DNA of 58,077 bases from an uncultured virus (IMG/VR IMGVR_UViG_3300020046_001970) (IMGVR_UViG_3300020046_001970), one strand, 5' to 3'. Counted from the first letter of the stretch, positions 5,274-50,679 are shown. Translations and numbers: made by a program. Notes: a model not told the origin generated them from the sequence alone.

Positions 5274-5279
5274 GAGGGA

Positions 5280-25823: not shown

Positions 25824-27239
25824 ATGGTAGGGCAAAGAGATCGGACCCCTCAGCTACTGGAGATGACGAAGCTCCCGTGGCCAGCACCTCCACTAAACAT
25901 CTTCATGTTAGATGGTACGAGAGGGACTATAGACCTCCGTTGGGATGACCCCTCTATACTGACGTTGAATAGTGGGTTTCAGTTACTTGGGGTGAATGTC
26001 TACCGGTCGTTCGACTCTGAGTTTGGACCTTACCATCGGATATCCGACCTACCCATTGGGGCAACCTTTTGGAGAGACCAGACAGACAACGAGTTGATTG
26101 TAGAGGAGGACGTATCCTCAAACTTCATCCTATTTGGAGCCTCTCGATCTGCAAGTGGGTCTGACGCGCCTAGGTATGTATTCAAGACCCTACGCTACCC
26201 CATTGTTAAAGCAGGTAGTGACAGAGGACTACCCACAAACACTCCTGGAGATGTTCGAGTTTTCGTGGATGGGGTGGAGGCAAGAGTTCTTCGGGTAAGT
26301 GGAGCTACGGGAGAGGTTGAGATTGACGCTAACATCTATACAGAGGTGGGCCGTCAGAAGACCATAGCCCCTATTTTGCCCACCACGACAAGCAGGGTAA
26401 CGTGTACTTACCTTTACCCAAGGTCCGTCCTCAAGACAGACCTGAGTCAGCGTATCTTCTACCGCGTTACCACGGTAGGTATTCCTGTAAGTTGTAACCC
26501 AGCACTTGCCACGGCTCAAGACCTCGTGGAGACTCCACTAGAGCATGCTGCGGCTACGAATACGTTTGAGATAGAGAAGCTTGACTATATCTGGAGGGAA
26601 GCCATTCGACGAAATCGATGGATCCTTCAGCAGGGGGGAGAGAGAGCCAGCGTCTTCCTACGCAAGAATGTGGGCGTCCCTTGTACCTGTGTGTCCCCTC
26701 ACCACAAGCAGCCAATCTCCGACTGTTACCTATGCTACGGGGTTGGAGTTGTTGGGGGCTATGAGGGGCCCTATCCAATCCTGATTGCACCGGATGATGC
26801 TGAGGTGGCTATTAGGCAGACAGAAGCAGGTCGAGTTCAAGGGCACACCTATGAGGTATGGACAGGACCCACCCCTCTTCTTAGCCATCGTGACTTCATC
26901 ATGAAGGTCAATGGGGACAGGTACTCGATCGGCCCCGTACGGATGCCCTCTAACCGAGGGAACATACTACAGCAACACTTCTCTATCTCGTCCTTCGATG
27001 ACAAGGACATTCGATACAAGGTGCCTGTAGGTAATCCTGTAAAGTACTCCGCTGTGCAGTTTGTTCCTTCGGGGCCAGAGCACGAAGCAAGTCAAGAAGT
27101 TACGAACAACCCTAATGTAGGGGATGAGCGTGAGCTTAAGGGGCGGACTTTGGCTTGGAAGAACACTAGTTACGGTATTCTACTTTTGCTTGGGTACTCC
27201 TTGTTGGAGGCCTCTCATGTCGTTTCTAGGATCGTGTAA
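25824..27239 (+). CDS. Putative neck/head-closure protein with FN3-like N-terminus and Zn site
   Basis: P.PP.N...L.W...G.NVYRS (FN3-like); GGE...F.RK..G..C.C...C..CYG.G..GGY. Confidence 0.55.
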   Translation: MVGQRDRTPQLLEMTKLPWPAPPLNIFMLDGTRGTIDLRWDDPSILTLNSGFQLLGVNVYRSFDSEFGPYHRISDLPIGATFWRDQTDNELIVEEDVSSNFILFGASRSASGSDAPRYVFKTLRYPIVKAGSDRGLPTNTPGDVRVFVDGVEARVLRVSGATGEVEIDANIYTEVGRQKTIAPILPTTTSRVTCTYLYPRSVLKTDLSQRIFYRVTTVGIPVSCNPALATAQDLVETPLEHAAATNTFEIEKLDYIWREAIRRNRWILQQGGERASVFLRKNVGVPCTCVSPHHKQPISDCYLCYGVGVVGGYEGPYPILIAPDDAEVAIRQTEAGRVQGHTYEVWTGPTPLLSHRDFIMKVNGDRYSIGPVRMPSNRGNILQQHFSISSFDDKDIRYKVPVGNPVKYSAVQFVPSGPEHEASQEVTNNPNVGDERELKGRTLAWKNTSYGILLLLGYSLLEASHVVSRIV

Positions 27240-28276
27240 AGTATGTGGTAAGCTTCTGCGTAGCTATCGTGGAGTAGCAAGTCATTTGAGACCAGATAGA
27301 GTGAATGCAGCGCACGGACCATTACGCGAAGAGTGGCTTCGATGGAGAGATACCTATCGAGTAGTATTGAAATGTCGAAAGTGTGGGGTACCCTGGGAGG
27401 TTAATTCAAAGTCCGAGAGTAACAGAAAACGTTGCCCCTCTTGTTGTCAACTTCGTAGGAGTTTGGGTAAGCTGGGGTACGAAAAACATGACATCTCACC
27501 ACCACCTCCTAAGCTAGACCCCCACTAAGTCATCGTTTTGTTGGCAGAGGGGGGATCCTACTTACCTAGAAATTGAATCCGGTCTGTGGCGAGAAGACAC
27601 CACGGTCCGTAGTCTTTTGAGGGATCTCAGTCTAACCTACATCGCCTTTCGTGCTATAGCTGAGGATATTCTTGGTTTGGTTGGATATCAAGAGTGGGCT
27701 AGAGCTAGGAGGCTAGAAGTTACCAAGAAAGCTTACACCGCAGCACGAAAGGCCTACTCTAGCTTAACACCAGAGGGGAAGGCAAAGAGGCGTAGTGCGA
27801 TGGCTAACCGCCCCACCCTTCTTGAGCTTGGCATGGTTGATCAACTCCGTGCTCAAGGGGTTAACTCTTTGGAGCTTAACGTCTGGCAGTCAGTTCCCAT
27901 AAGGGGACAGATGGTTCCGCGAGAAGCAGACATTAAGATCTCTATTGGAGGTGGTCGAAAAGTGGTTGTATTGTGTGATGGGGAAGCTTTTCATGGGCCC
28001 CGCATGATTTTCGGGAACCCTCAAGATCGTATTCTTGCTGACACTGAGACTGCTGAGGCTTACTACGCTTTGGGCTATAGCGTCGTACGGTATTCGGAGA
28101 CGGAGATTAAGTCTGGGGTTGCAGTAAAGCACATGCTGGATGTCCTCAAACGGTTAGACGGATGTAGAGCTATTTATCGAAACTGGTGCCCAAGTGAGGA
28201 GAGGGTCTCCTCTCCTAGTACCTTACACCTAATCCACTTATCCGTTGGAGCTGAGTATGACAAGCAAGCTAACTGA
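27217..28276 (+). pseudogene. Zn-finger plus Vsr/DUF559-like endonuclease split by a +1 frameshift near 27522
   Basis: GGAGG RBS and ATG 27217 (CKVCGK...CRKC...CPSC) ending at TAA 27528; +1 frame open from the C5 run to EADI...CDGEAFHG...GYSVVRYSE. Confidence 0.65.
28232..28241 (+). promoter_or_regulatory. Candidate late-promoter motif (ATCCACTTAT)
   Basis: 15 nt before ATG 28257. Confidence 0.5.
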
Positions 28277-31490: not shown

Positions 31491-31541
31491 GATCTTGAGG
31501 TAGGGTTGGGGTTCGATAAAGGTCTTATGCCCTGTTGTAGT

Positions 31542-32432
31542 ATGCCTCAAGAAAAACGAACATTCTCGAAGGAAGAGCTACAGTCTTTGCTGGATACCGA
31601 CCCTAACATCACAATACAGAAAATGGGACTTATCCTGAGTTGTGGCAAGCAGACGTTGGCTAGAGAGTTGTCTAGGCATGGTCTTCGAACTAGAAAATGG
31701 GATGAACGCAAGCATACACTTGAGACTCGAACAAAGATTAGTCAGCAGCGCATTGAGAATGGCGTTGCTAAGGGTGAAAAAAATCCTAACTATGGCTCCA
31801 AGCCGAGACCATGGTTGGAGGGAGAAAATAGTTCTCTTCGTAAGTGGCATCAGGAGCACCCAGAGTTTGGAGTCAACCAACGTGGAGTTGAGAACCCCAT
31901 ACATAAGGTAAAGCATCTATACCAAGATCCTGCTTACGTTGCTAACATCACCCGTGGCATTCGAGCCCATGTCAAAAGTAAGACAGGTAGGAGCTACGAA
32001 GAGGTGTACGGGGCGAAGAAAGCCGCAGAGTATAAGGATAAGCTCAGGGCGGCCTCTCCAGGGAGGATGTCAAAGTTCAAGCGCAAGGTAACAAAGCCCG
32101 AGTTGATTGTCAGGGGTCTTCTTCAGGGGCTTGGAGCGTCGTTCGTGGAACAGGCCACCTTAGGTCCTTACACGGTGGATTTTCTTGTCCCTGATTTACG
32201 ACTCGTGGTGCAGGCTGACGGGGATTATTGGCATGCGAACCCAGAAGTGTACCCTAACGACGATAAACTATCCAAGTCTCAGCAGAAGCAGAGACGACTA
32301 GATGCCTCGTGTAACTCCCTCATTAAGAACAAGGGTTATGTGCTAATACGGTTGTGGGAAAGTGACTTACGTCAAAATCAGGAAAAGTGTGCAGAGATCC
32401 TATGTGAGGCTCTCAAAATGAGGAACAAATGA
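31542..32432 (+). CDS. HTH/NUMOD3 plus DUF559/Vsr-like endonuclease
   Basis: HTLETRTKIS..GEKNPNYG; TKPE...YTVDF...ADGDYWH...RLWESD. Confidence 0.8.
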   Translation: MPQEKRTFSKEELQSLLDTDPNITIQKMGLILSCGKQTLARELSRHGLRTRKWDERKHTLETRTKISQQRIENGVAKGEKNPNYGSKPRPWLEGENSSLRKWHQEHPEFGVNQRGVENPIHKVKHLYQDPAYVANITRGIRAHVKSKTGRSYEEVYGAKKAAEYKDKLRAASPGRMSKFKRKVTKPELIVRGLLQGLGASFVEQATLGPYTVDFLVPDLRLVVQADGDYWHANPEVYPNDDKLSKSQQKQRRLDASCNSLIKNKGYVLIRLWESDLRQNQEKCAEILCEALKMRNK

Positions 32433-33445
32433 GTACAGACCAGACATATTGTTATGGAGTTGGGATTGACTTGGGGACAATGAATATTTTGTCCGCTCGG
32501 CAGACAAAAGACAACAAGATCCATACCAAACGAGTAAGGGATGCGTTCATTGACTTGGACGGGGAGGCTAAAAAGGCCCTCAAAATGACGAAGGTCGAGT
32601 ACGTCGAGAGGGATGGTCAGCTGATTGTCATTGGAGACTCAGCCTTGAACATGGCCAACCTCTTCAAGCGGGAGGTGCGTAGACCTCTCGCGAAAGGCGT
32701 TGTTGCAGCTGGGGAGTTCTTGGCTCAGGAAGTCTTGTCTTTGATGATCTTCCAAGTCCTACAGGAGCCCTTGGTCGAAGGGGAGCACTGTTATTACAGT
32801 ATTCCTGCGGCACCTATTGACATCCCAGACCAGGACGTCACTTACCACCGTGAGGTCTTCCGCAAGATCATCTCTGAGTTTGGTTACACCCCCCACCCGA
32901 TGAACGAAGCTATGGCTATCATCTATAGCCAGTGTGCAGAAGAGCAGTTCTCTGGGCTATCGGTCAGCTTTGGCTCGGGCATGTGTAACGTAGCACTCGC
33001 CTATCAGACCATGATGGGTATGGAGTTCTCGATGGCTAGAGGTGGGGATTGGATTGATCTCCACGCGTCTAAAGCCACTGGAATGACAGCTTCCCGTATT
33101 TGCGCAATCAAAGAAAAAGGAGGTTTCAATCTTGCTAACCCACCGAAGAACAGTCGTGAGGCTGAAGCGATATCTCTCTACATTCGTAGTCTCATCAGCT
33201 ACAGCCTGGAGAAGATCGCACACCAATTCCGTAGGGACGCAGGGAAGATGGAACTCTCGGACCCCATCCCATTCATAGTGTCAGGTGGGACCACGAAGGC
33301 GGAGGGCTTCATGGATATCTTCAAAGAGGAGTTTGAAGCCATGAAGAAGAAGGGTTTCCCAATCCAAATCTCCGAGGTTCGACAGGCGAAGGACCCTATG
33401 ACGGCAGTAGCAGAAGGCCTTCTTGTACTAGCGATGCAAGAGTGA
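32429..33445 (+). CDS. Actin-like ATPase (volactin/MreB-like)
   Basis: Phosphate-1 GIDLGTMN, connect NEAMA, phosphate-2 SFGSGMCN, adenosine VSGGTT, connect-2 AVAEG. Confidence 0.88.
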   Translation: MSTDQTYCYGVGIDLGTMNILSARQTKDNKIHTKRVRDAFIDLDGEAKKALKMTKVEYVERDGQLIVIGDSALNMANLFKREVRRPLAKGVVAAGEFLAQEVLSLMIFQVLQEPLVEGEHCYYSIPAAPIDIPDQDVTYHREVFRKIISEFGYTPHPMNEAMAIIYSQCAEEQFSGLSVSFGSGMCNVALAYQTMMGMEFSMARGGDWIDLHASKATGMTASRICAIKEKGGFNLANPPKNSREAEAISLYIRSLISYSLEKIAHQFRRDAGKMELSDPIPFIVSGGTTKAEGFMDIFKEEFEAMKKKGFPIQISEVRQAKDPMTAVAEGLLVLAMQE

Positions 33446-33452
33446 GGATTTC

Positions 33453-34271
33453 GTGAAACCTTGCAAAAAATGTGGAGTAACTGATCGGAACAGTCAGGGT
33501 GGTTGTCGCCCTTGTGCGAAGATTTACCTACAGGCCTATTACCAATCCCATAAAAGTCAGGCTAAGACTAACTCTCGCAATCGTACGCAGGGATTAGCAG
33601 ATGGGACGCTTAAACGTCCTTCGCACCCATGCACTAAGTGTGGTAGTTCTGAGCGAGGTAAATACGGGCACTGTCTGCCTTGTGGTGCCGCTCGTAACTT
33701 GAAACGCTACCATGCCGACAAGCCGAAGGCGAAGGCATACAAGCACGCTCAATACTTGAGTAACAAGGATAAGGTGAATGCGGACAGTAAAGCTTGGGCC
33801 AAAGCTAACCCGGACAAGCGAGATGATGCTACTGAGAGAAGACGCTTGAAGAAGTATGGGCTTACAGTTGAGCAACATCAAGCACTTTTTGAGATACAGG
33901 GTGGTCTCTGCCTTATTTGTAATGAGTCGTTTGGGAAACGAGTTCACATCGATCACGACCATAGTACAGGTCGTGTTCGGGGACTTTTGTGCCACACCTG
34001 CAACGTAGGTCTAGGTCACTTTAAGGATAGCTCAGCACTTTTACGTAAGGCTGCCGAGTACCTTGAGGGCCACCAACCAACGGATTTCGTAGTGCCCAGT
34101 CCGGTCATCAAGGTTTTTCAGCCCAGTGATGGTCGATACAAGATCACAGATGCAGTGCGTTCTCAGATTAAGGTCTTGCGGGAGCAAGGCCTTAGTTTAG
34201 GGGTCATCGCAAAAACGGTTGAACTATCGCGGTCTACGGTTCAGGTCATTCTCAAAGAAGTGAGACACTAA
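33453..34271 (+). CDS. Endonuclease VII-type HNH homing endonuclease with C-terminal HTH
   Basis: KKYGLT...Q.G.C.IC...HIDHDH.TG.VRGLLC..CN.GLG.F.D. Confidence 0.9.
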   Translation: MKPCKKCGVTDRNSQGGCRPCAKIYLQAYYQSHKSQAKTNSRNRTQGLADGTLKRPSHPCTKCGSSERGKYGHCLPCGAARNLKRYHADKPKAKAYKHAQYLSNKDKVNADSKAWAKANPDKRDDATERRRLKKYGLTVEQHQALFEIQGGLCLICNESFGKRVHIDHDHSTGRVRGLLCHTCNVGLGHFKDSSALLRKAAEYLEGHQPTDFVVPSPVIKVFQPSDGRYKITDAVRSQIKVLREQGLSLGVIAKTVELSRSTVQVILKEVRH

Positions 34272-36709: not shown

Positions 36710-39700
36710 ATGAGCTTTGGTCCACTAGGCACTTACGTCCCACCTGGCGTATACTCGCGTACTCTAACCGAGGCGACCTTAGCTTCATTGATCCCAGGGC
36801 TGCGAATTCCAATGTTGGTTGGAATTGGCCAGGAGGAGCTGGAGCAGTACGACCTAGAGTTGGTGCGAGGTTCCTCGTCCACGCTAGATCAGCAGATCCT
36901 TAACGAGGATATCTCTGCTCGTTGGGTTGTAGACGACACCAACCCTCAGAACTTGGTTCTGGGGGCAAACAATGGTACCCGAACTAGATTTGTAGTTCGT
37001 AACTTCCCTATCGTTGATGGGCAGGGTATCGGTCGACCAAGCAACGATGCTAGGGCTGTCTCGGTCACCGTGAATGGTGTTCCCGTTGCGATTGGAGCGG
37101 TACGAGGTACAACTGGAGAGGTCATCCTTCAGGTCCCTCCTCAGCCAACCGATAACGTACGAGTCACTTACTTCTTCCACCGGGGCGACACGGCCTTCAC
37201 GGATAATGTCTCGGACCAAGTAACGAGCACAACGGCAGAGATTGTGGCCTCTGGGTACGAGCCCTTTTCGATTACGGCTGGCACGAACAACCTCCTCAAA
37301 ATCAAGGTTGACGGACTAGAGTCCACGATTGCCTTCACGGATGCCGCAGCTGCTACAGTGTCTTCGTTGAAGAATCAGATTGACGCTGCTGGTATCTCGG
37401 GGCTAAGCACCCTGGTGTTCCAGGCAAATGACGGCACGCTCCACCTCCAGATGAACTCTGCAATCTCAATCGAGATTATGGATGGCAATGCGAACGGGAC
37501 GCTCGGTCTCTTTGCAGGGCAGAAGTCTACGAGAAACACTGCCTTCCGCGTCTACCAGAGGCCTATCGTAGATGGGTCTTCTGGGGGAATCACCACCACT
37601 GACCCCTCCAAGGTAGTGGTCATGGTGAATGGATCTCAGGTAATCCCATCCTCGGTAGATGGGACAAACGGTATCGTGAATCTTAGCTCTCCGCCCTCTG
37701 TTGGGGCGATTGTAGAGATCACGTACTACTCGAATACTTGGCAGGACACGTTCGACTACCTACCTAACACGCTGGTAACGAACATTGTCCGTTGTGGTAT
37801 TAGCCCAAATCGTTCGGACTACATCCAGAACCAGGACTTCGTAGTTTCTAACCCAAGTCCTGACGTCTCTATCATCCACTGGGGTACGAGCTACAGTGTA
37901 GCGTCTTCGCTCCGCACTCCAGGGGCAGAGCCTCTAGATGACTCTCAGATTATCCCCACGCTTGTGGACGATAAGCTGTGGTTGGTGGAGTGTGAGCGCT
38001 ACGTGGACACCTCTGTTGTACCCTCCAAGGTGTCTACGACAGACTTCGTCCTCCCTGTATCCCCTACCACGGGTAACGGGCGTAACACTCCGCTGACTCA
38101 GACTCTGTTCAACACGGCTACGAATGCTCGTAACGACCTCATCACCAATCGTCCAGACTTGGTGGTGATTCGTGTTGGTCGAAGCTTGCGAGATGCTTTG
38201 GGTCGTCCCGCAGCAAAGGTCCTTGTTCTTGACGGGTCCACTCGCAAGGTCACCCTAAAGGACCCTGTTCCGCCAGACTTCAAGGCGTACGCTACGTACC
38301 ACTACAACCGTATTGCAGATGACACCTATGTCATCACAAACAAGACCAGTGGTCCTGCGGGCTCGGGTCAGTTTGAGGTGCTCAGCGCACTCTACAACAC
38401 CAATGTGATGCAGGTGCGCTTCGGGTCCAAGGGTGGCGGTTTGGTGGACACTGTACAGTGGCCACGAGGAGCTGAGCAGGTTCCTGATGCCTTCCACTAC
38501 GGCAAGACTCCAACCTCTGAGACGGTCACCGTTACCTTTGGTTCGAGTGTAGCTACCAATGCTCTGTACACGAACAAGGGAGCACAGCCCTTCTCGTTCT
38601 ACAGTCCATCCTCTGCCACTTGGCGCACAGCCCTGAACGGGGCTCCAACGGTGGTTACCAACCTAGCGGTTGCCACTCGTGGTTACCTTGTGTCCAAGGA
38701 AATCACCTTGGTCTCAGGTGGGTTTGCCATCACAGCCGCAAATCAATTGCTAGAGCTTACTGTAGACGGAGTTAACCTAACGGTTACCCTTCCAGTGGGC
38801 GTAGCGGTTACCCCAGCTGCAATTGCTACGGCTGTCAATGCTGTAGTCGATGCAAACGCTTCGTTCATTGGTACAGCTCCAAACAACTTGTTTACAGCTA
38901 TCCCAGGGGCAAGCGGAGCTACGAATTACTTTGTTCTACGTAGCTACTCAACCCCAGCGGCTCTTCCAGGTGGGTTTGATCACAAGTCCTATGCAGCTAT
39001 CCGTCAAGGTACAGCAGAGACTACGCTAGGTCTCACGACCTTCCAGCGTGCTGACGGTACTCCTACCGCAGTCAACAAGCCTGCTACCCTTCTGGGTACG
39101 ACGGCTCAACCGTTCATCATCACGGCTGGAGTGAACGACCTATTCAAGGTCCGCATCAATGGGATTGACTTCACGGTCACTCTCAGCTCCGCCTCGACCA
39201 CCTCTGCTCAGATTGTCTCAAACCTCAACGCCATCATTGCCTCCCAAGGTACTGCAAGTGTCGGGACGCTAGACAACCTGAACAAGATCCGAATCACTTC
39301 AAACGTGAACTCGGATCAATCCACCGTTCTTATTCTGAACGGCACTGCAAACGCAACCCTTGGGTTCACAGAGGGTACGTTCGCCAGTCAGGTTCGAGTC
39401 AGTGTCCAAGAAGTCTCCAACAGACTGATGGATACTCCTAACTTTGCCGTATCTACCTGGAGCCCTCCTACTGCATTCGCAGGAGCTGTGGCTTACCCAG
39501 CAACGATCAACGGTTCAGTTTACCTGACCATTGCATCGCTCATCACTGGACTAACCTCTTCGGTTGCTTTCGTTACCGGGGCGAACTCAGCGTTCAACAC
39601 GTTGAGTGGTACTCAGATTACTCCAGGTACCGATGGGGATAACGGTGAGGCTACTTACGACAACTTCGTCGTAACATCCTCGAACCCCGTAGGTTCGGCT

Positions 39701-40999
39701 GGCACAGGTATCCCAGGGCAGACCTACACAGACGCTAGGACTGGACTCCGGTTTACTGTTCTACCTTCTACCGATGGGTCGTATGCAACTGGTGGGTTCT
39801 TCACCCTTGAGGTTTCGCCAACCTGGAAGGTGAACTCTTCGGTACCTTACCTATCGGTTCCAGGTTTGGAGCTAATCGTCACCAATACGGTGAACGTTGG
39901 GATCAACGACACGGCTCAACTTCAGACCTTCAACCCAAGTGGCGTTGAACCAAAGAACGGGGACTTCTACTCCATTAGCTACCGCTTCTTGAAGCAGGAC
40001 TACACGACTCGAATCTTCCGTCAATTCAAGACGATCGAAGCCAACTATGGCCGACTCTCTGCGGAGAATCGAGTCACCTTGGCTGCCTACCTGTCTATCC
40101 TTAACGGGGCAGTCCTGGTAGGGGTCAAGCAAATCGAGAAGGTTCCAAACACAACCCAGGCTAGTGACCAGTCGTTCATCACGGCTCTTCAGGCGCTTAG
40201 TAACCCACTACCTGGAAACATCAAGCCGGACATCATGATCCCGCTTACGTCCTCCACGGCAGTGTTCTCGTACCTCACGCAACACTGTGAGGTGGCGAGT
40301 AACATCCGTAATCAATCGGAGCGTATGGGCTTCATTGGGTTTGCCTCCGGGACAACTCCAACAAACGCTCAGACCATTGCCAAGGCATTGGCAAGTCAAC
40401 GTATCGTTGCCTTCTACCCAGACTCGGCAGTTATCACTCTCTCGAACGAGTTGGGTGAGAACTTCGAGACCCTGGTAGACGGTACGAACTTCGCAGCTGC
40501 CTTCGCAGGAGCTGTTGTAAGTCCTTCGATTGACGTAGCGACTCCATACAGCCACCGTAGGGTCCAAGGCTTCACTCGCATTCCTAGGATTATGGATGCA
40601 GTGGAGATGAACCAGACGGCAACCGCAGGTGTAACTATCCTGGAGGACCTGGATCCAGTCATCCGAGTTCGTCACGGTCTTACCACCAACATGAACTCGG
40701 TCTTGACTCGCCTACCTACGGTGACTCAGATCGCAGACCATGTGTCGCAGAACTCTAGGTCGGTTCTTGATGCCTTCGTGGGTACCAAGTTCCTCTCTAG
40801 TCGGGTGAATGAGGTTGAGGTCTCTATGACCTCGCTGTTCAAGTCTCTTATCCAGCAAGAGATCGTTTCGGCCTTCACAGGGATTGCAGCGGCAATCGAC
40901 ACTGAGGACCCAACGGTACTTAGAGCAGAAGCCTACTACCAACCTATATTTCCACTTTTGTACCTCATGCTCACATTCAACCTTAGGGCGAGGATCTGA
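36710..40999 (+). CDS. Contractile tail sheath protein, 1429 aa, with many inserted domains
   Basis: N-terminal Y.PPGVY; C-terminal sheath core (H....S....ER...G.T...V.....YQPIFPLLYL..TF). Confidence 0.88.
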   Translation: MSFGPLGTYVPPGVYSRTLTEATLASLIPGLRIPMLVGIGQEELEQYDLELVRGSSSTLDQQILNEDISARWVVDDTNPQNLVLGANNGTRTRFVVRNFPIVDGQGIGRPSNDARAVSVTVNGVPVAIGAVRGTTGEVILQVPPQPTDNVRVTYFFHRGDTAFTDNVSDQVTSTTAEIVASGYEPFSITAGTNNLLKIKVDGLESTIAFTDAAAATVSSLKNQIDAAGISGLSTLVFQANDGTLHLQMNSAISIEIMDGNANGTLGLFAGQKSTRNTAFRVYQRPIVDGSSGGITTTDPSKVVVMVNGSQVIPSSVDGTNGIVNLSSPPSVGAIVEITYYSNTWQDTFDYLPNTLVTNIVRCGISPNRSDYIQNQDFVVSNPSPDVSIIHWGTSYSVASSLRTPGAEPLDDSQIIPTLVDDKLWLVECERYVDTSVVPSKVSTTDFVLPVSPTTGNGRNTPLTQTLFNTATNARNDLITNRPDLVVIRVGRSLRDALGRPAAKVLVLDGSTRKVTLKDPVPPDFKAYATYHYNRIADDTYVITNKTSGPAGSGQFEVLSALYNTNVMQVRFGSKGGGLVDTVQWPRGAEQVPDAFHYGKTPTSETVTVTFGSSVATNALYTNKGAQPFSFYSPSSATWRTALNGAPTVVTNLAVATRGYLVSKEITLVSGGFAITAANQLLELTVDGVNLTVTLPVGVAVTPAAIATAVNAVVDANASFIGTAPNNLFTAIPGASGATNYFVLRSYSTPAALPGGFDHKSYAAIRQGTAETTLGLTTFQRADGTPTAVNKPATLLGTTAQPFIITAGVNDLFKVRINGIDFTVTLSSASTTSAQIVSNLNAIIASQGTASVGTLDNLNKIRITSNVNSDQSTVLILNGTANATLGFTEGTFASQVRVSVQEVSNRLMDTPNFAVSTWSPPTAFAGAVAYPATINGSVYLTIASLITGLTSSVAFVTGANSAFNTLSGTQITPGTDGDNGEATYDNFVVTSSNPVGSAGTGIPGQTYTDARTGLRFTVLPSTDGSYATGGFFTLEVSPTWKVNSSVPYLSVPGLELIVTNTVNVGINDTAQLQTFNPSGVEPKNGDFYSISYRFLKQDYTTRIFRQFKTIEANYGRLSAENRVTLAAYLSILNGAVLVGVKQIEKVPNTTQASDQSFITALQALSNPLPGNIKPDIMIPLTSSTAVFSYLTQHCEVASNIRNQSERMGFIGFASGTTPTNAQTIAKALASQRIVAFYPDSAVITLSNELGENFETLVDGTNFAAAFAGAVVSPSIDVATPYSHRRVQGFTRIPRIMDAVEMNQTATAGVTILEDLDPVIRVRHGLTTNMNSVLTRLPTVTQIADHVSQNSRSVLDAFVGTKFLSSRVNEVEVSMTSLFKSLIQQEIVSAFTGIAAAIDTEDPTVLRAEAYYQPIFPLLYLMLTFNLRARI

Positions 41000-41033
41000 T
41001 TTACCCAGTAAATTCAGACACTTACCGGTAACA

Positions 41034-41066
41034 GAAGACCCAACTCCCAAAAAGAGTTGGGTCTTC
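41034..41066 (+). terminator. Stem-loop terminator after the sheath gene
   Basis: GAAGACCCAACTC-CCAAAAA-GAGTTGGGTCTTC. Confidence 0.75.
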
Positions 41067-41095
41067 ACTATTGTCTGGTCAAGTGAGTCCATCTG

Positions 41096-43360
41096 GTGTA
41101 CTACTTAGGTGTGGTCGCCAAGTCCAGTACGAGTACCCAGGAGATTCTAGACTCTTTTCACGAAGATCACCCGCTTAAGTGGGTGGCCGTAAAGTTTAGA
41201 ATCAGTCCGAATCGCCTTCGTGATGCATGGAAGACTCATTACGGGGAAGAGGCGTTTGAGGAGAGAGTAAGAAAGCATCAAAAAGGTGCTCCACTAGGGT
41301 CTGCTGACCTTGCCATCGAGGTGTTTAATACAGATGAGCCCTTTAAGGCTCTGGCAAAACGCCTTGGTATGAGCCCAAATACTCTCCGAAAGATTTGGGT
41401 AGCTCGTTTTGGAGCCGAAGCATTTCATGCTAGGGGTAAAGCGTCCCAAGCAAAAGGAGCGGTATCCTACGGGGTTAGGTCGACCGGACTCGCAAAAAAG
41501 AAGAACTTTGTCTATGAGCCGTGTTCAGGGTGCAACACCCTTGTGTCTCTCACTAAAGTGCAGCTTGCAGCCCTAACCAAAGTAGTTTGTGAGACTTGCC
41601 TAGGTATGGATTCCAAGTGCCCTGTCTGCGGTCTAGGCTGCATGGGGGTAAAGGGAATCGCTATGCACTTTGCACAGGTAAAGGACGAGGCTCACATTAA
41701 CTACCAAGAAGAAAAGGAAGAAGCGAAGTGGTCTGGCCTAGTCGAAGACAGACATTATGTGACTTGCAAGGAGTGTGGGTTTCGAGGGGTGGCTCTAAAT
41801 AACCACTTAAAACTCCATGGTTTAGATGCAAGCAGCTACCGAACAAAGTTTAATGGTGCGCTAGTAACTTCGTCCTTCTCTGAGGAGAAGAGACTGAAGT
41901 CCTTAATGCCATCCGCGAGTCGAAGAGCTTACCATTGGAGCCCAGAAGTTCTGAGGCAGTTCACAGATGAGAAAGGTCGTGTAATCGTTGCTGAGGCAGC
42001 CTTGGCATTAGGGGCTTCCCCACTTACCGTACTCCAGTACTGTCGGTCTTTGGAGCTACCTACACGTAATAAGTTGGCTTGGCAGAGAGTTGTTTTGGAT
42101 CAAGCCAGTAAGGCGTTTGAGGCACCTTATGTGTGGGACCCCAGAATAGTCAACCCAAGTACTGGGAGAGTTCTCAACTTTGACGGATACTTCCCTAGCC
42201 TAAATCTTATAGTTGAGGCTCATGGTGACCAGCACTATAGGTATGCTGAGGCTTGGCATGGCTCTATGGAGAATTTTCATGAGTTACGGGAGAGGGACCT
42301 ACTCAAAAAGCAACGAGCAGAGGAGCTTGGGTTTCGGGTTTTGGTGGTGCGCCCAGTTGACCCAACGCATAGTGTAACTTTCTGGAAGAGACTTAGTCCT
42401 GTAGACCCTGTTGTTTTGGCGAATCAAATTGACCAGGTTGTAACCACCTTACGTCAAGGGGTATTTCCTATGCCCAAACCCCTTGACGCTGAGCTTAAGA
42501 AAGCCTTGACTAGACTTCAGGGTACAAGTGTGGTTGTAAACTCGGACCTCGTTATTTACCCTTACTCTGTAAGAGGTACCTCTGCTTGTGCCTCATTTTT
42601 TCCCGCTAGGTACCAAGCTAAACACAAGGCCGTAGATAAGAGTGTATGGGAAGCCTGGCATGATGACGACCTACTCAGGAAAGCTATCAAGTTGCAGTTG
42701 GACTCCGGGCATCCTACGACCCCTGAGAGGGTCTTAAAAGCTCTTGTAATGTATCATCGAACCCCGTCTGTGTTTCGTCCTGCCGTAGCAAAGTACGTCT
42801 ATCAAACTTACGGGAACAAAGGGGTAGTCTGGGACCCGTGTGCTGGGTATGGAGGTAGACTTCTAGGGGCTCTTGCTGCTGGAGTCTCTACTTACATCGG
42901 AACGGACATTGAACCAGCTACAGTTGAAGGTAATATTGCTATCGCAAAACACTTGGGGGTAAGTGGTTCCTACAAGGTTGAGCTTCAGGCAGCCGAGGAA
43001 TTCGACCCTGGAGTACCTCTCGACCTCGTGTTCACCTCTCCTCCCTACTTTGACCTGGAGACTTACGGTAAAGCTTCTTTAAGGGCTAGTGTTGGGTATG
43101 GCTCGCCTCAGGGTTGGGTAGAGAACTTCCTTCGTCCAGTGATGACCAAAGCTATGGAACGTTTGAAGCCAGGAGGGCACCTTGTGTTGAATTTACCATA
43201 TAAGCCTGTACTTGGGACTCGATTGGATGTAGAAGCTACCCGAGAGGCTAAGGTGCTTGGGTTGAGAGAGTTGCCAACACTTTGGATGCCTATTCGTACC
43301 TTCAAAGGTACGATGAAGGGCGAGCCCATACTAGTTTGGCAGAAAGAGCAAATCCCATGA
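41096..43360 (+). CDS. HTH / Zn finger / PD-(D/E)XK endonuclease / N4-N6 DNA methyltransferase fusion
   Basis: Two SPN.LR..W...G.EAF HTH-like repeats; CxxC and C..C...H...H; FDGY...IVEAHG.QHY; DPCAGYGG and TSPPY. Start may be GTG 41111. Confidence 0.83.
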   Translation: MYYLGVVAKSSTSTQEILDSFHEDHPLKWVAVKFRISPNRLRDAWKTHYGEEAFEERVRKHQKGAPLGSADLAIEVFNTDEPFKALAKRLGMSPNTLRKIWVARFGAEAFHARGKASQAKGAVSYGVRSTGLAKKKNFVYEPCSGCNTLVSLTKVQLAALTKVVCETCLGMDSKCPVCGLGCMGVKGIAMHFAQVKDEAHINYQEEKEEAKWSGLVEDRHYVTCKECGFRGVALNNHLKLHGLDASSYRTKFNGALVTSSFSEEKRLKSLMPSASRRAYHWSPEVLRQFTDEKGRVIVAEAALALGASPLTVLQYCRSLELPTRNKLAWQRVVLDQASKAFEAPYVWDPRIVNPSTGRVLNFDGYFPSLNLIVEAHGDQHYRYAEAWHGSMENFHELRERDLLKKQRAEELGFRVLVVRPVDPTHSVTFWKRLSPVDPVVLANQIDQVVTTLRQGVFPMPKPLDAELKKALTRLQGTSVVVNSDLVIYPYSVRGTSACASFFPARYQAKHKAVDKSVWEAWHDDDLLRKAIKLQLDSGHPTTPERVLKALVMYHRTPSVFRPAVAKYVYQTYGNKGVVWDPCAGYGGRLLGALAAGVSTYIGTDIEPATVEGNIAIAKHLGVSGSYKVELQAAEEFDPGVPLDLVFTSPPYFDLETYGKASLRASVGYGSPQGWVENFLRPVMTKAMERLKPGGHLVLNLPYKPVLGTRLDVEATREAKVLGLRELPTLWMPIRTFKGTMKGEPILVWQKEQIP

Positions 43361-43572
43361 CCTATATCCTAGTAGCCAGTGAGTTTCGTACTCCCCACAT
43401 CAAGGGGCAGTGGTTGGTGTTTGAGGTCAATGTAAACCAGGAGGCACGAGAAGTGGCCTCTTGTCTTAGCTTAGAGGCTGGGAAAGCGGTTATGGCCCTT
43501 CTAGGGGTGCCGTCCTCTACTCCATACCATGAAAGCCCCTGGGGTGTTCCTGAGTCTACGAACTTCGTGTAG
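43357..43572 (+). CDS. Hypothetical protein
   Basis: ATGA overlap with the upstream gene. Confidence 0.5.
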   Translation: MTYILVASEFRTPHIKGQWLVFEVNVNQEAREVASCLSLEAGKAVMALLGVPSSTPYHESPWGVPESTNFV

Positions 43573-43639: not shown

Positions 43640-46600
43640 ATGTACAAGTACGATTACTCCTCTGTCAATTCAGGCCTAAAGGCTGGATACCGACGCATTT
43701 TTGCAAGTGATGGTCTTGACGAGGATGGTGAGCCTATTGGGGAGATTCAAGTCTCCGAGTACATAATCTTCCTACTTGCGGTAGATACCTACATTCGGTA
43801 CCTTGAGGAAGCAACCTCCCAAGAGGACCCGCTGGATGAGGTAGTTGCAAAGGGGCTAAGACTTCTTCGTAACGCCGACTCTGAATTGGACTCGATTAGT
43901 TCATTCATGCAAGGGCATCTGGCCTCTGATACGCATAAGCGAATGCTTTTGAAGTATCTTGAGATCAAAGCTACGAACCCTCAAGGGGTGGGCCGTCGTG
44001 CTCTTGGTTTACGGACAATACTCTCACGAGGTGGGGCCGCCACTATGAGAGGTGTGTTCCAATCTAACAAGGCATTGAAGCAAGTCCGTGAAGCCATGAG
44101 TGCGGCTCAAATGGACAACGCAGATGCGGCTCTGGACCTTTTTGCTAAGCTTACGTTTCGTAACATGCGGCTTCGGGGTTGGATTGAGCTGGCGGCTAAA
44201 ACAGCTATCTCAGGCCAACTTCCAGCCAATGTCGTGGAGGCTGGAGCCAAGGAAGCTCAAGACCAAAAGAGTAAGTTGCTGGAGGAGAACATCCAACAGA
44301 TGGCAGCCTCTGGTGGAGACGCATCTAAGCAGGCCCAAGAAGCTCAGACTACGCAGCTTCTGAAGGTCCAAGATGATGCTACCGCAGCGGCTCGTCAGTC
44401 GATGGATCAAGCTGGGGAGCTTGATGAGCCTCTTACAAAGTCTCAAGTCGTGGGCATTGCAGTAGCAGCAGCAGCAGCTGCTACGAGCGACCCCTCCAAT
44501 CCACAAAACGTCCCAGAGGCTCTTCGTGGGCTTGACGATGAGCAAAGGGCCGCAGCTCTTACAGACGGTAGAGTTGGAGTTTTTGCCGGAGCTGGAGCGG
44601 GGAAGTCCAGTACCCTCGTAGCTCGTGTTGCCTACTTGGTACGAGATCGTAGAGTCAATCCGAGCCGAATTCTGGTGACGAGCTTCAACACCAAGGCAGC
44701 CTCCGAGTTGAAAGAGAAGATCGGACGCTCGACGAGCGGGGACACCCTCCAGCAGATGTCTGTCGGAACGCTACACTCCATGGGCAAGAGGTTCGTCCTT
44801 GAATTCGGGACCCCCGAAGAAAAGTCCGCGTTGGAGTCCGGCTTCATGCAGGGTGGGGCCACGATCGCAAGAGCGGTCCAGAAGGTCTGGGAGGAGTGCT
44901 ATGATAAGGACCCGCCGCCCAAGTTGAAGAATGCAACCATGGACCGGGCGAAGTGGTCGGGTAACGACATCACCCCGGAGATGGCTAAGGCCCAAGCCGT
45001 CTCCTCTGAGGAGATGAAGAGCGCCATGTGGTACGAGATGTACGAAGGGCTCAAGGGTACAGCAGGTCCGGACTGGGAGCCCCCGTGTAAAGGCAGGGCG
45101 TTCGAGAGTTTCATGGGTCGATACCGACCGCGTGGAGATCGCCTCGGGGACTTCACCGATCAGCTAAAAATCTTCAGGGATATTCTGAAGCGTAACCCAG
45201 CTGTCAAGACCAAGGTCCAAGGGATGTTCGACCACATCATTGTGGACGAAGCTCAAGATCGAAACACCGTGATGGCGGACATGATAGACCTCATGTCCCA
45301 GCATATTACGGACGGGGGAGATGGTAAGTCATGCTGGATTGTCGGAGACGACAAGCAAGCCATCAACTCCTTCCAAGGAGCCAAGGCGGCACTCTTCAAG
45401 GACCTCTTCCAGAAAGAGGGCTGGAAGACCCGTGTGATTCGCACGAACTATCGGTGCGAGCCTGAAATTGTCGACGCCGCAAACCGGCTCATCGGTCACA
45501 ACGAGGGGAACGTTCCGATCCCGCAAGTGGCTGCTCCAGGACGTAAGCCTGGCTTGGGGAGCATCAAGGTTCAAGTGGCTGAGGATGAGGCGGACGCTGC
45601 ACTCAGCACCATCGAAGAAATCAAGCAAGCACATGTCAACGGTGACGACCTTACGGACAACGCTGTCTTGTTTCGTACAAACAAGGAGATTCACTCCTAC
45701 GAGACGGCCTGCATCATTCGCGGCATCCCGTATGCCAGGAAGGGGGCTGGGTCTTTCCTGGGTTCGCCTGAGACAAAGGCGGTCTTGAGTTATGTCCAAC
45801 TCGCAACTGGCTCGGACTTCGAGAAAATGCAGCAATCGTTGGCTCAAGTCGTTGACACCCCCAATCGTTTTTTCATCTCCGATAAGAAGCGAATCCCAGA
45901 GGCTGTGGATCAAGCGCTGGCCCAATACGCTCGGGCCGAGGGGTTGAGCATCAAGGCGGTTAATCCACTTGAAGCTCTTGAGGACAGGAATTTCCTTCGT
46001 AACTTAGCAGTAAATCTTGGTCGGTTGACCAAGAGCGGCAAGGGCACCAAGTTCGAGGAGCAGCTTCGGGATCTTGCGGATTCGGTACGGGATCTCAGGA
46101 TTAGTGCCTCGGACCCCGATTACAAGACGAAGGACCTGTTCGACGATATCTTGTCTGTCGAAGGAGTCGCCTACGTCAAGGGTTCCCGGCAACCACAGAC
46201 CTTCCGTGAGAGCCTGAAGGCCGACTTGCGGGACGCTCTTGGGGAAGACGACGAGGCCGTTGAATCCGATGAGGATGAGGAGGGCTCAACCAAGGGCCTT
46301 GGTAACGTTGCCTTTCTCTACAAGTTGGCCGAGCCAGATCCCACGGATGAAGATGACGCCATCACCCCGCCCACATCCCCGGATGGTTTCGCGGCAAAGA
46401 TGTCCCGCTACACCGCCAAGATGCGTGACCTTCGGACGGACCTCGGTAAGTGGACGAAGGACCAGAACGCGCTCCCTCCAGAACAGCGTAAGAGGCCACC
46501 AGGAGTCTATCTCGGTACGGTCCACTCAGTGAAGGGCGCGCAGTGGAAAACCACGTTCGTCCAGATGCCGGGTGGGAAGTTCCCCATGGAAATCAAGCCC

Positions 46601-46870
46601 AAGCCTGGTGAGCCTCCGCCAGACCCGGTCAAAGAGGCAGAGCGTTGGGAAGATGAGCGTCGTTTGGGGTACGTAGCCCTGACCCGAGCCGCCAAGAATC
46701 TTCGCATCGTTTGCCCCAAGGAAGTTGGGGGTAGATCGGCCGGAATTAGCCCCTTCGTCCGTGAAGCTGGCCTGGTGGCAGGGGAAAACATCTCGAAACC
46801 CGAAACTCCACCTCTCACCAAAGAAGCCGCAGAGTTGATCGACTTGTACCAGTTGGGGGGTGGGCTATGA
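43640..46870 (+). CDS. UvrD/Rep/PcrA SF1A helicase with ~290-aa N-terminal extension
   Basis: LDDEQ..A; AGAGAGKS; SFNTKAA; VDEAQD; VGDDKQAI..F.GA; NYR; TVHSVKG; EERRL-like DERRLGYVALTRA. Confidence 0.95.
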   Translation: MYKYDYSSVNSGLKAGYRRIFASDGLDEDGEPIGEIQVSEYIIFLLAVDTYIRYLEEATSQEDPLDEVVAKGLRLLRNADSELDSISSFMQGHLASDTHKRMLLKYLEIKATNPQGVGRRALGLRTILSRGGAATMRGVFQSNKALKQVREAMSAAQMDNADAALDLFAKLTFRNMRLRGWIELAAKTAISGQLPANVVEAGAKEAQDQKSKLLEENIQQMAASGGDASKQAQEAQTTQLLKVQDDATAAARQSMDQAGELDEPLTKSQVVGIAVAAAAAATSDPSNPQNVPEALRGLDDEQRAAALTDGRVGVFAGAGAGKSSTLVARVAYLVRDRRVNPSRILVTSFNTKAASELKEKIGRSTSGDTLQQMSVGTLHSMGKRFVLEFGTPEEKSALESGFMQGGATIARAVQKVWEECYDKDPPPKLKNATMDRAKWSGNDITPEMAKAQAVSSEEMKSAMWYEMYEGLKGTAGPDWEPPCKGRAFESFMGRYRPRGDRLGDFTDQLKIFRDILKRNPAVKTKVQGMFDHIIVDEAQDRNTVMADMIDLMSQHITDGGDGKSCWIVGDDKQAINSFQGAKAALFKDLFQKEGWKTRVIRTNYRCEPEIVDAANRLIGHNEGNVPIPQVAAPGRKPGLGSIKVQVAEDEADAALSTIEEIKQAHVNGDDLTDNAVLFRTNKEIHSYETACIIRGIPYARKGAGSFLGSPETKAVLSYVQLATGSDFEKMQQSLAQVVDTPNRFFISDKKRIPEAVDQALAQYARAEGLSIKAVNPLEALEDRNFLRNLAVNLGRLTKSGKGTKFEEQLRDLADSVRDLRISASDPDYKTKDLFDDILSVEGVAYVKGSRQPQTFRESLKADLRDALGEDDEAVESDEDEEGSTKGLGNVAFLYKLAEPDPTDEDDAITPPTSPDGFAAKMSRYTAKMRDLRTDLGKWTKDQNALPPEQRKRPPGVYLGTVHSVKGAQWKTTFVQMPGGKFPMEIKPKPGEPPPDPVKEAERWEDERRLGYVALTRAAKNLRIVCPKEVGGRSAGISPFVREAGLVAGENISKPETPPLTKEAAELIDLYQLGGGL

Positions 46871-48550: not shown

Positions 48551-49771
48551 GTGAGTCGCACCCTTGTTACGATAGCTACGGATGGGTTTCGAGACTATGT
48601 AAGTCTCCCCAATGGCGACACAATCAACCTAGGTACAACCTCGGTCCTAAAGCTGATTACGGAAGTGGTGCCCTTCTCAGCGGATATTCGTAAGGCCCTA
48701 GATACCTTCCTAGCTAAAGGTACCGTCACTTTGGCGGCTGATCAGTCAGCTCTACTGAAGGTTCTTCGCCCAAAGAAGTCCCGATGGGCAGCACATGAGA
48801 ATCGTTTTATTCCCGTTGGTATACAAGACCCTAATGGAGTTTGGAATTCAATGAGTACTGACCTGTTTAACTCTAAGCTCGCGTCTCTAGAGACCCTTGT
48901 CGAACTTGGTATTGACGAGGACACTACTAGGGTTGCTCGTCAGCTTGTGGCGGCTCTAAGGGTAGCAGCGGTTGATGCGGATGCCAAGCGAGAGCTGGAC
49001 TTGTTCATTGAGAACGAGGGGCGGTTGGCAGCTAAGAAGGAGAGTATCCTTACCAACCTACTCCGTAAGTTGAAGTCTGATGGTTACAACCACAGCCAGG
49101 CCCCCAAACTTTGGATGTACCTCGTGGACGAAGGGGCCAAGATGTACGCGAAGGAGATGGGTAGCGGTATTGGGGACGCAAAAAACCTCTTCCCCAAGGA
49201 ACTCCGAGAGTCTCTCGCAAAGGACATGGCTGACAACGAGCTAGAGCTAATGAAGAATGGGGAGTACGACCATTTGAAGAAGGCTTCTAGCTCGGTAGAG
49301 GCTCAAGTGGAGACGGTTGTTGGGCAAGTAGAGACTGCACTCCAAGTGGTCGAGACTAGCCCTAAGGCCAACACGCACCTGGCTAAGAAAGACCTTCACA
49401 TCATTGCTACGAAACTAGCTGCTATGGTTTCAGAAGATGCGGGTCCTGAGGTCACAGCAGGGCTAGAGGACTTGGCTGGGAAGGTAGCCAAGATCCAGTC
49501 TCACTTTGCTTGTGGCGGGGGCTGCTCAGGTCATGCTCAGAGTGAGGCAGAGAGTCTACTATCCAAGGTTGAAGACACCTTCCAAGTAGTAGAGGCCAGT
49601 GGTAAGTCTGGAGCAAACCTAGCGAAGAAGGACCTACACACTACCACGGTAAGGCTAGCTTCTTTGCTGCGTGAGGGCGGCGTAGATAGCGTCGAGGGTC
49701 AAAAGGCTCTACGAAACTTGTCTTTCAATGTAAGTAAGATTCGGTCTCACTTCGCGAGTCGAGTCGTCTAG
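48551..49771 (+). CDS. Modular hypothetical protein with duplicated C-terminal helical domain
   Basis: VE...QVVE.S.K....LAKKDLH.....LA...KI.SHFA occurs twice. Confidence 0.75.
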   Translation: MSRTLVTIATDGFRDYVSLPNGDTINLGTTSVLKLITEVVPFSADIRKALDTFLAKGTVTLAADQSALLKVLRPKKSRWAAHENRFIPVGIQDPNGVWNSMSTDLFNSKLASLETLVELGIDEDTTRVARQLVAALRVAAVDADAKRELDLFIENEGRLAAKKESILTNLLRKLKSDGYNHSQAPKLWMYLVDEGAKMYAKEMGSGIGDAKNLFPKELRESLAKDMADNELELMKNGEYDHLKKASSSVEAQVETVVGQVETALQVVETSPKANTHLAKKDLHIIATKLAAMVSEDAGPEVTAGLEDLAGKVAKIQSHFACGGGCSGHAQSEAESLLSKVEDTFQVVEASGKSGANLAKKDLHTTTVRLASLLREGGVDSVEGQKALRNLSFNVSKIRSHFASRVV

Positions 49772-50679
49772 TGCTTCAAGGACTTCAAATACAGACTTCC
49801 CTGTCCGCTCCAAATGAGAGCGGTTTGGAAGTCTTGTTGAAGGTCTGTAAGGGCCCGTGTGGACTTGATAAGTCTACACTGGAGTTTGGTATTCGTAAAG
49901 ACAAGAAGGGGCTGGAAGTACTCCGAACTTGGTGCAAGCCGTGTGAGGTTTTGGCGACTCAAGACTATCTTCGTAGGAAGAAGCTGGGTCTCGGCCCTAA
50001 GCCCAAGAAGGTCGTTGCCATTCCTAAATCGAAGACTTGTGCTGGATGTAAAGAGGACTTGGCGCTGGCTCAATTTAGACCTCGGAAAAGAGGACTCTAC
50101 GGACGCTACAGTCTCTGTGGTACATGCGAGAAGGCCGTTAACCAAGTCTACGTAGAGACCAATAGGGAAGAGATTAACCGAAGGAAACGTGAGTCCTGGT
50201 TAGCAACCCCTAAAACTGAGGAGCAAAAACAAGAAGCTGCGGGTAAAGCAAGGGCTTGGTACAAAGCAAATAGAGAAAGAGCCGTTGCTGTTCGCATTGC
50301 TTGGGTTAGGTCCCACCCAGATAGTCGGATTGCAATAAACAAACGATGGAGGGGCCTTAACCCCTTAAAAGTTGCAGAAAATGTTAGGCAGCGAAGAGTA
50401 ACCCTTTCCAAAGTTGAGAACACCTTAACTACCCAAGAGTGGGAGGCTGTCGTACAGTCCTTTGGGGGTCGTTGTGTTTACTGCGGCTCAGGTAGCAAGA
50501 AGATCACAATGGACCACATTCAACCTATCTCAAAGGGTGGGGCTCACTCCAAAGAGAATGTCGTCCCAGCCTGTAAGTCATGTAACTCTCGAAAGGGCGC
50601 AAAAGACCCAGCTCTATTCGAGTTTGTGGTCCACCCAAAGCCAATTTCACACAAGTTTAACGCAAAGAACGGAGCGTAA
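49771..50679 (+). CDS. HNH homing endonuclease
   Basis: CVYCG...MDHIQPISKGG.H...N.V.AC.SCN..K; N-terminal Cys fingers. Confidence 0.92.
   Translation: MLQGLQIQTSLSAPNESGLEVLLKVCKGPCGLDKSTLEFGIRKDKKGLEVLRTWCKPCEVLATQDYLRRKKLGLGPKPKKVVAIPKSKTCAGCKEDLALAQFRPRKRGLYGRYSLCGTCEKAVNQVYVETNREEINRRKRESWLATPKTEEQKQEAAGKARAWYKANRERAVAVRIAWVRSHPDSRIAINKRWRGLNPLKVAENVRQRRVTLSKVENTLTTQEWEAVVQSFGGRCVYCGSGSKKITMDHIQPISKGGAHSKENVVPACKSCNSRKGAKDPALFEFVVHPKPISHKFNAKNGA

Follow-up and report, generated by a model that had tools for sequence, protein, structure and literature searches.

The element described here lies on the plus strand of a stretch of 58,077 nucleotides from an uncultured virus (IMG/VR IMGVR_UViG_3300020046_001970), the whole of which is called the window. 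Its core is an open reading frame (ORF) at 41096-43360, behind the tail sheath gene, that joins a predicted homing-type nuclease to a DNA methyltransferase (MTase). The element is best explained, with modest confidence, as a free-standing homing endonuclease that carries the MTase as C-terminal cargo. The usual view of homing endonucleases is of pure parasites that, once fixed, decay. Here the same MTase, under purifying selection and able to outlive the nuclease, is carried by two unrelated homing families, one at each of the two virion genes best conserved in a clade of uncultured huge phages; this suggests either that homing delivers a protective gene or that homing and restriction are combined in a hybrid. 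Known parts make up the element, and the mechanism is, by analogy, like the homing of the T4 Seg/Mob endonucleases; new are a candidate target, a test of self-protection, a single origin of the fusion and a degenerate allele. The 27-bp recoded patch in the sheath gene, the pair of alleles with and without a conserved Glu and the MTase-free and nuclease-free forms can be tested on plasmids without phage culture.

The ORF was present as the original prediction had described it and encodes 754 amino acids from GTG 41096 (model pLDDT, the predicted local distance difference test, 85), the start being probably GTG 41111, from about which the N-termini of homologs align. The order of its parts is two helix-turn-helix (HTH) repeats, zinc fingers, a Vsr/EDxHD-like nuclease and an amino DNA MTase. 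The HTH repeats, presumed to bind DNA, occupy 41123-41485 (amino acids ~10-130) and were identified by weak Pfam HTH_28/HTH_Tnp_1 matches, a local hidden Markov model and helices in the structural model. They are followed at 41513-41860 (amino acids ~140-255) by CxxC, C2H2 and ROS/MucR-like zinc fingers, presumed to recognise the target, with a ROS/MucR match at E 3.5e-5 in Pfam and at E 9e-6 to PDB 2jsp. The nuclease lies at 42059-42391 and the MTase at 42458-43357, the latter comprising a helical N-part, motif I DPCAGYGG (42833-42856) and motif IV SPPY (43037-43048). For the whole ORF, Pfam and PHROG gave weak matches to HTH, ROS/MucR, endonuclease (phrog_559, 9084) and N6/N4 methylase, and the NCBIfam scan gave nothing useful. 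No strict sigma-70 promoter was found ahead of the ORF, and a start-hiding hairpin at it was not significant (z -1.2).

The MTase region had been said to recur in the ORF that begins at 5280. Residues 457-750 align with that ORF at 105/304 positions (35% identity, E 3e-42), and all the quoted motifs are in the alignment: G...C..F..RY.A, AW.D, KAI..Q...G.P..P, PS.FRPAVAK, DPCAGYGGR, TSPPYF..E.Y and W...FLR. Outside the MTase no segment shared with the ORF at 5187/5280-7544 was better than E 0.16, and the N-part consists, as predicted, of two HTH repeats, CxxC/C2H2 fingers and a PD-(D/E)XK-type domain in place of LAGLIDADG.

That the N-terminal part is a nuclease was borne out by the AlphaFold model of an intact allele (pLDDT 92.5), in which the domain has a Vsr-like fold and best matches Vsr and I-Bth0305I. 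In Foldseek, Vsr (1vsr/1cw0) and I-Bth0305I (3r3p) take ranks 1 and 3-5, the best E, 1.6e-3, falling short of the usual cut-off. A wide fold search (VIA) gave Vsr 1cw0 at Z 9.2 (root-mean-square deviation 2.4, 102 aligned) and I-Bth0305I 3r3p at Z 8.1 (deviation 3.2, 88 aligned), with a mitoribosomal chain tying with Vsr at Z 9.2. Sequence searches of solved structures missed both proteins, 3r3p having no sequence-level match, and only fold searches recovered them; Foldseek with the full-length fusion model returned MTases only. Invariant residues in 25 aligned nuclease domains are D45, G46, F48, E56, G59, H62 and K86. By motif spacing, the putative active-site residues D363, H376, H380, D401 and E374 correspond to D196, N208/H64, H213, D222 and the acidic residue at the position of Vsr Phe62, the counterparts of D196, H213 and D222 of I-Bth0305I being D363, H380 and D401. 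The helix-1 position of E170 appears as Q330 in fused members and as Glu in some MTase-free ones (the bridge alignment is weak, probability 14%), and for this reason the nuclease is filed as EDxHD-like only. I-Bth0305I and the EDxHD homing endonucleases are Vsr-like and phage-borne, free-standing members exist, and their active-site residues are given in the available part of PMC3239194. The window element resembles I-Bth0305I in its Vsr-like catalytic fold, N-terminal DNA-binding repeats and phage-borne state; it differs in having HTH repeats and zinc fingers where I-Bth0305I has NUMOD repeats, in lying outside an intron, in its C-terminal MTase and in the Gln (Q330) at the E170 position.

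In the window copy the nuclease gene has lost 9 bp, in frame, between 42136 and 42137, and with them three residues after W347, including a Glu kept in 32/33 homologous rows of one alignment and 23/25 of another. The strand bearing this Glu is long in the intact-allele model and broken in the window model; the window nuclease is probably impaired and may be dead. The same deletion was identified in a second record (P0251), whereas P0249, equal to the window protein at 753/754 positions, retains the three residues, so it looks like a recent allele. Reading the deleted Glu as the E of EDxHD was also considered and rejected, as its spacing relative to Vsr assigns it to strand beta-1.

The host gene of the element is the tail sheath gene (36710-40999, plus strand; 59 orthologous loci), recognised by Pfam Phage_sheath_1C at E 1.7e-8 in the ortholog L220 and weakly in the window copy (E 0.12); no match came from a profile search against solved structures. 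Contigs of close relatives leave the window at 40997 in two of four runs (X3, X11) and join it at 43357 in three (X3, X9, X11), the fourth run holding only small pieces of the element. The exchangeable module therefore spans 40998-43356 and comprises a hairpin, a leader and the fusion ORF. These contigs show the module boundaries, with no joint and no coverage of the 9-bp deletion, and shares in the run search were 0.20 or less. The 13-bp hairpin (41034-41066, plus strand; -22.8 kcal/mol, z -6.7) is terminator-like with a weak U-tail. On the right, a 71-amino-acid ORF without Pfam match (43357-43572, plus strand), whose ATG overlaps the fusion stop, is the boundary common to relatives without the module. 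A UvrD-like helicase gene (43640-46870, plus strand) directly follows the sheath gene in empty alleles.

The 59 sheath loci comprise 21 empty ones (running into UvrD), 21 with an HTH/zinc-finger nuclease without MTase, one with the fusion, 13 with other genes or remnants and three without flank, and occupancy switches 8 times on the sheath tree. The predicted association with variable loci thus holds, the slot being empty, nuclease-only or nuclease-MTase in relatives, and from these sequences the element is read as mobile, occupying one fixed intergenic site between conserved genes in some genomes and missing from it in others. Synonymous divergence to the relative L222 is 0.61 in the arm, 0.67 in the nuclease and 0.33 in the MTase, whereas outside the module the sheath has 0.10 and UvrD 0.17. 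That the ORF is a fixed phage gene or a chance fusion, with no homing element at all, is very improbable. Purifying selection acts on all its domains (ratio of non-synonymous to synonymous substitution, dN/dS, 0.10 in the arm, 0.05 in the nuclease and 0.07 in the MTase, against L222), as a fixed gene would have it, but close relatives lack the ORF or have something else in its place, with sharp boundaries, and at least 44 homologous fusions speak against chance.

Other contents of the slot were also identified. In the closest sheath relative (L168:8221-10311) it holds a 697-amino-acid protein with an ART-PolyVal domain, and in L164, L165 and L167 it holds DnaJ-domain genes. Promoters of TTGACA type that belong to the nuclease gene itself, with 4-8 nt between the -10 box and the start codon, are present in 16/49 occupied loci and 0/16 empty ones (e.g. 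L175, L177, L190, L192, L197 and L213, 30-110 nt past the sheath stop); in several, by eye, an inverted repeat pairs the promoter with the start codon.

The candidate cut site is a patch of nine sheath codons, YQPIFPLLY, at 40937-40963 (plus strand), 33-60 nt before the sheath stop, of which the window holds the presumed immune form, synonymously recoded to A/T third positions. At third positions the patch is GC-rich where there is no nuclease and A/T-rich in carriers, while the encoded protein stays mostly the same; the mean GC content of these positions (GC3) is 0.43 in fused, 0.59 in nuclease-only and 0.78 in nuclease-free alleles, over baselines of 0.73, 0.77 and 0.73. An allele was counted as recoded where patch GC3 lay more than 0.1 below the upstream value of the same allele. 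Duplicates, L211 (little upstream), L315 (cut), the remnants L185 and L207, the three flankless loci and ten loci in which the anchor pattern failed to match the sheath end were excluded. By this count 11/12 fused, 22/37 nuclease-only and 4/24 nuclease-free alleles are recoded, the last figure having been 2/13 before L170, L172 and L174 were moved from the other to the empty class. The nuclease-only alleles divide into 11/14 in the first set and 11/23 in the held-out set, the latter against 4/24 nuclease-free giving Fisher p 0.03. In the mean sliding profile (138 codons), fused and first-set alleles reach their lowest value at the patch, and the held-out set has a shallower minimum that is shared with codon +9. 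The sole non-recoded fused allele, L237, also lacks the conserved Glu. The final C of the patch is found in 12/12 fused alleles and in 8/22 recoded MTase-free ones. Recoding is thus no less frequent in fused than in MTase-free alleles, which argues that methylation does not stand in for recoding as self-protection.

In the preferred explanation the element would be an intronless homing endonuclease that has acquired a DNA MTase as C-terminal cargo. During mixed infection the HTH/zinc-finger arm would guide the Vsr-like nuclease to the conserved 3' stretch of a rival's sheath gene, and repair of the break from the carrier would transfer to the rival the 2.36-kb module together with the recoded patch, which would resist cutting. 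Immunity of the carrier would come mainly from synonymous recoding, as in MTase-free relatives. The MTase, which would derive once from LAGLIDADG-MTase elements at the capsid site, would most likely methylate a short motif across the phage DNA against host restriction or other nucleases; this benefit would pay for the upkeep of the element and let the MTase outlast the nuclease.

Several points weigh against this explanation. The patch and the -0.1 threshold were picked after the first set had been viewed, replication is partial (12/23 held-out nuclease-only alleles are not recoded), 4/24 nuclease-free alleles are recoded, and phylogenetically independent pairs are too few (of 5, 3.6 run the same way and 0.0 the opposite, median p 0.125). 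All 12 fused alleles descend from one element, and 11 of the 12 hold CTTTTRTAC in the patch, against 3/37 nuclease-only and 1/24 nuclease-free alleles, while plain avoidance of the cut needs no such motif. The absence of MTase loss from the fused nuclease clade (0/14 complete loci) is equally predicted by self-protection. No link was found between the MTase and any avoided site, avoidance being the same in the MTase-less relatives L084, L167, L168 and L171. Finally, a search with the right-flank DNA pattern found one known contig only, and no near-identical empty sheath allele could be read along its whole length.

Some of these points suit a cut-and-mark scheme, in which the MTase would methylate a base in or near the homing site (or at secondary sites of a relaxed nuclease) and would be part of carrier immunity, acting between phages much as a restriction-modification system does; we regard it as unlikely. 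RTAC stands at patch codons 8-9 in 12/12 fused alleles, against 6/22 recoded nuclease-only and 11/24 nuclease-free ones; CTTTTRTAC persists also between sheaths of 39% identity, with synonymous sites of the element saturated; and the MTase is never lost in the 14 complete fused loci, while nuclease loss recurs. However, recoding in 11/12 fused against 22/37 MTase-free alleles (p 0.07) means that carrying the MTase brought no relief from recoding, related MTases at 45-53% identity work with nucleases of differing targets, the LAGLIDADG-MTase carrier also has a recoded tract, and the fixed motif is explicable by shared descent of the element. Homing elements with epigenetic immunity, in which the MTase would mark RTAC in the patch, protection would be part recoding and part methylation, and unmarked co-infecting phages would be cut, are equally a minority prospect. 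If they were real, several unrelated homing nucleases would obtain a self/non-self code from a single portable MTase module.

The LAGLIDADG-MTase sister element lies behind the capsid gene at 5245-7544 (plus strand), with a promoter TTGACA-17-TACGAT at 5245-5273 and an ORF from ATG 5280. In comparison with the empty allele L084, 19 of 290 capsid codons differ, 18 of them synonymous within codons 242-284 (4979-5107, plus strand), which form the co-conversion tract of the sister element. To judge from these sequences the evidence for a conversion tract is cleaner at the capsid than at the sheath, and the pattern is, by analogy, the one that intronless homing leaves in T4. Near-identical capsid proteins have differing slots: fused (L083, L085), empty (L084) and LAGLIDADG-only (L086). 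L084 and a contig with an intact sheath element share an assembly series, which suggests that neither element needs the other. The capsid terminator hairpin (5154-5189, plus strand; -36 kcal/mol region, z -8.4) is also present in L084, whereas the sheath hairpin belongs to the swapped module, and the two placements are for this reason not strictly parallel: of the claim that each element sits after a terminator, the position behind the sheath gene stood and the strict parallel with the capsid site did not.

A clear dip in the capsid GC3 profile is found only in MTase-free LAGLIDADG alleles (codons 261-272) and is weak in fused ones. This A/T recoding (window 5036-5071; GC3 0.52 against 0.76), seen among others in L086, L099, L100, L114 and L119, marks a second candidate target. 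Both LAGLIDADG types occur in tandem in L109, L111 and L251. ORFs whose capsid-like match is partial lie just downstream of elements at L224:5331-6023, L330:4875-5600 and L287:1113-1460, two of which were scanned without a Pfam match.

The free-standing T4 Seg/Mob endonucleases cut a neighbouring gene at a distance, with co-conversion, in what is called intronless homing, according to the available part of PMC2988022. The window elements share with them an intergenic position between conserved genes, a patchy distribution, a likely cut site in the neighbouring gene and co-conversion; in the same source SegD lies behind the T4 capsid gene (23/24), like the sister element in its capsid slot. The T4 enzymes differ in being GIY-YIG/HNH nucleases, where those here are Vsr-like or LAGLIDADG, and the available part of PMC2988022 mentions no MTase for them ('methyl' 0 times).

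Comparison across loci indicates that the choice of site follows the nuclease and not the MTase. A subfamily scan of viral contigs (36 loci) placed Vsr-like fusions behind the sheath in 13/13 cases and LAGLIDADG fusions behind the capsid in 20/20, one of the latter behind an unfused LAGLIDADG; the rest were one other fusion after the capsid and 2 stand-alone MTases. In a metagenome scan, with many of the same contigs, 8/10 Vsr-like fusions lay behind the sheath and 21/27 LAGLIDADG fusions behind the capsid, the remainder being cut off. Six loci with an HNH, second-type LAGLIDADG, HTH-only or no partner sit elsewhere, and a scan of species genomes gave 1 locus. Anchored on the nuclease, a scan that was not dereplicated placed 67/80 loci directly behind the sheath, the other 13 being weak matches; 13 of the 67 have the MTase and 54 are MTase-free (one cut by a contig end).

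In a tree of 72 nuclease domains, built on few columns, the fused ones form one starred clade (14 and one cut-off locus) within the MTase-free ones. A FastTree of 178/238 MTase domains placed the Vsr-like fusions in one starred clade of 23 within a group dominated by LAGLIDADG fusions; this clade contains two nuclease losses that kept the MTase (P0030, P0055) and one HNH swap. Both trees are midpoint-rooted. They indicate that a LAGLIDADG-type MTase was fused once onto a Vsr-like nuclease, a direction suggested by diversity. The two MTases of the window are not sisters and lie apart on the MTase tree, on which at least 13 changes among six nuclease labels were counted.

The original prediction had seen in this a family of mobile MTases that recruit interchangeable homing nucleases. 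The fusion to differing nucleases was supported: one MTase family occurs on unrelated folds, and the partners among 246 closer homologs, a set biased by its length window toward long, close matches, are LAGLIDADG_2 (97), Vsr/EDxHD-like (44), a second LAGLIDADG type (16), HNH (9), PHROG 13389 (6), EndoVII (3), ParB (2) and DUF4379 (1), the remainder being 51 short or cut, 16 other and 1 with HTH and zinc fingers without nuclease. The part that was not supported is the MTase as the agent of recruitment, given that each nuclease family is tied to one site, that 54/67 sheath nucleases are MTase-free and that the fused nucleases are one clade. The related proposal, in which selection acts on the MTase as the mobile unit and any homing nuclease that it meets serves it as a vehicle, is doubtful. 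At least 5 nuclease types fused, the label changes and HNH partners that arose six separate times, once inside the Vsr-like clade, are in its favour; but the insertion site tracks the nuclease, the Vsr-like fusion arose once and stayed stable over sheaths down to 39% identity, and most sheath nucleases and most family MTases are unfused. The claim that the elements target conserved virion genes agrees with the variable loci and with targets that, from their sequences, look like the conserved 3' ends of the sheath and capsid genes.

The MTase itself has DPCAGYGG and SPPY on a Rossmann fold in the model, 68 residues apart with no inserted recognition domain, and the protein ends with the catalytic domain. 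SPPY is present in 224/246 homologs and agrees with the amino-MTase motif IV consensus (D/N/S)PP(Y/F/W) (PMC7544214). The family comprises 4,686 representatives at E 0.001, and of the 80 best viral loci 71 encode stand-alone MTases of 300-390 amino acids and 9 fused ones. Pfam PF01555, PADLOC type II MTases and Atlas clusters place it with the DNA N6/N4 MTases; the Atlas clusters are named N4-cytosine-specific (score 0.99), names that are annotations and not measurements, and at this level N4-cytosine is the more likely base than N6-adenine.

A regulatory or RNA-acting MTase, which would mark or bind its own promoter or the patch to time nuclease expression, is quite improbable. The fixed sub-motif upstream of the module, occurring once in the window, the leaderless sigma-70-type promoters in 16/49 occupied against 0/16 empty loci, and the tRNA amino-MTase Trm11 among the best solved-structure matches fit such a role; the library placement with DNA N6/N4 MTases goes against it, as do the Foldseek matches: Rossmann MTases of a generic kind, 10-19% identical, with DNA MTases of type I and IIG among them. 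Tandem double-MTase forms, and a fusion of one MTase with a B12-binding radical SAM domain, were identified among P0051, P0137, P0174 and P0236, and two or three stand-alone family MTases cluster within 8 kb in other viruses, namely L013, L014, L037, L040 and L070-L082.

For the cargo role preferred here, the composition of the window is relevant. GAGCTC, CTGCAG and CTCGAG occur 0 times in 1-58077, against an expectation of 29-44 over both strands, and TTCGAA too is scarce. With three six-base palindromes wholly avoided, the phage evidently meets restriction, and an orphan-type MTase would therefore be useful cargo; an anti-restriction role of this type is listed for jumbo-phage methylases in the available part of PMC7824862. 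Word counts in the window revealed no MTase motif, GTAC being under-represented (z -7.7) along with other palindromes. The same site avoidance is seen in close relatives and not in L175, L194 and L229, and is a possible handle on the restriction systems of the host.

M1.BcnI makes N4-methylcytosine. In class E amino-MTases, as described in the available part of bioRxiv 10.1101/2023.12.13.571470, the S-adenosylmethionine motif precedes the catalytic motif by less than 100 amino acids with no inserted target-recognition domain; M1.BcnI and M4.BstF5I share this layout with the window MTase, being likened by layout and not by sequence alignment, and the window MTase differs by an extra helical N-part of ~120 amino acids and by the fused nuclease. 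Type IIG/IIC enzymes (BpuSI, DrdV, MmeI) also hold a nuclease and an amino-MTase in one chain, nuclease first, and BpuSI is Foldseek rank 2 for the full fusion model. By the sources available, their MTase is of class A with the motif NPPY, and the recognition domain is C-terminal and shared, whereas the MTase here is SPPY and class E-like; the separate N-terminal HTH/zinc-finger arm, the unrelated nucleases on the same MTase and the homing-type distribution are further differences. The class A layout of type IIG/IIC was considered and rejected, the motif being SPPY and the chain stopping at the catalytic domain. Unlinked viral N4/N6 MTases of the PHROG 12517/PF01555 type (Vibrio phage 2.058.O, staphylococcal and Bacteroides phages) have the same domain at 25-33% identity and, unlike the window protein, are unfused. 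Judged from search listings, no description of a natural homing nuclease-MTase fusion was found in the open-access literature.

Large uncultured phages make up the clade in which the window falls; 80/80 capsid loci are 92-100% identical, on contigs of up to 529 kb; the nearest annotated cultured capsids are those of Tunturi_5 (47%) and Bacillus phage G (37%). Further homing-type nuclease genes or remnants were identified in the window at 12700-13137, 21773-23161, 27124-27528, 31506-32432, 33453-34271, 49771-50679 and 28-783, and comprise PHROG 314, DUF7487, DUF4379, Vsr/DUF559, EndoVII and HNH types together with a LAGLIDADG intein in the head protease. An actin-like protein (32429-33445; Pfam Volactin, E 4e-70) is encoded inside the virion gene block, and 23436-24095 is a third, unrelated ORF resembling S-adenosylmethionine-dependent methyltransferases (weak FtsJ/PrmA matches).

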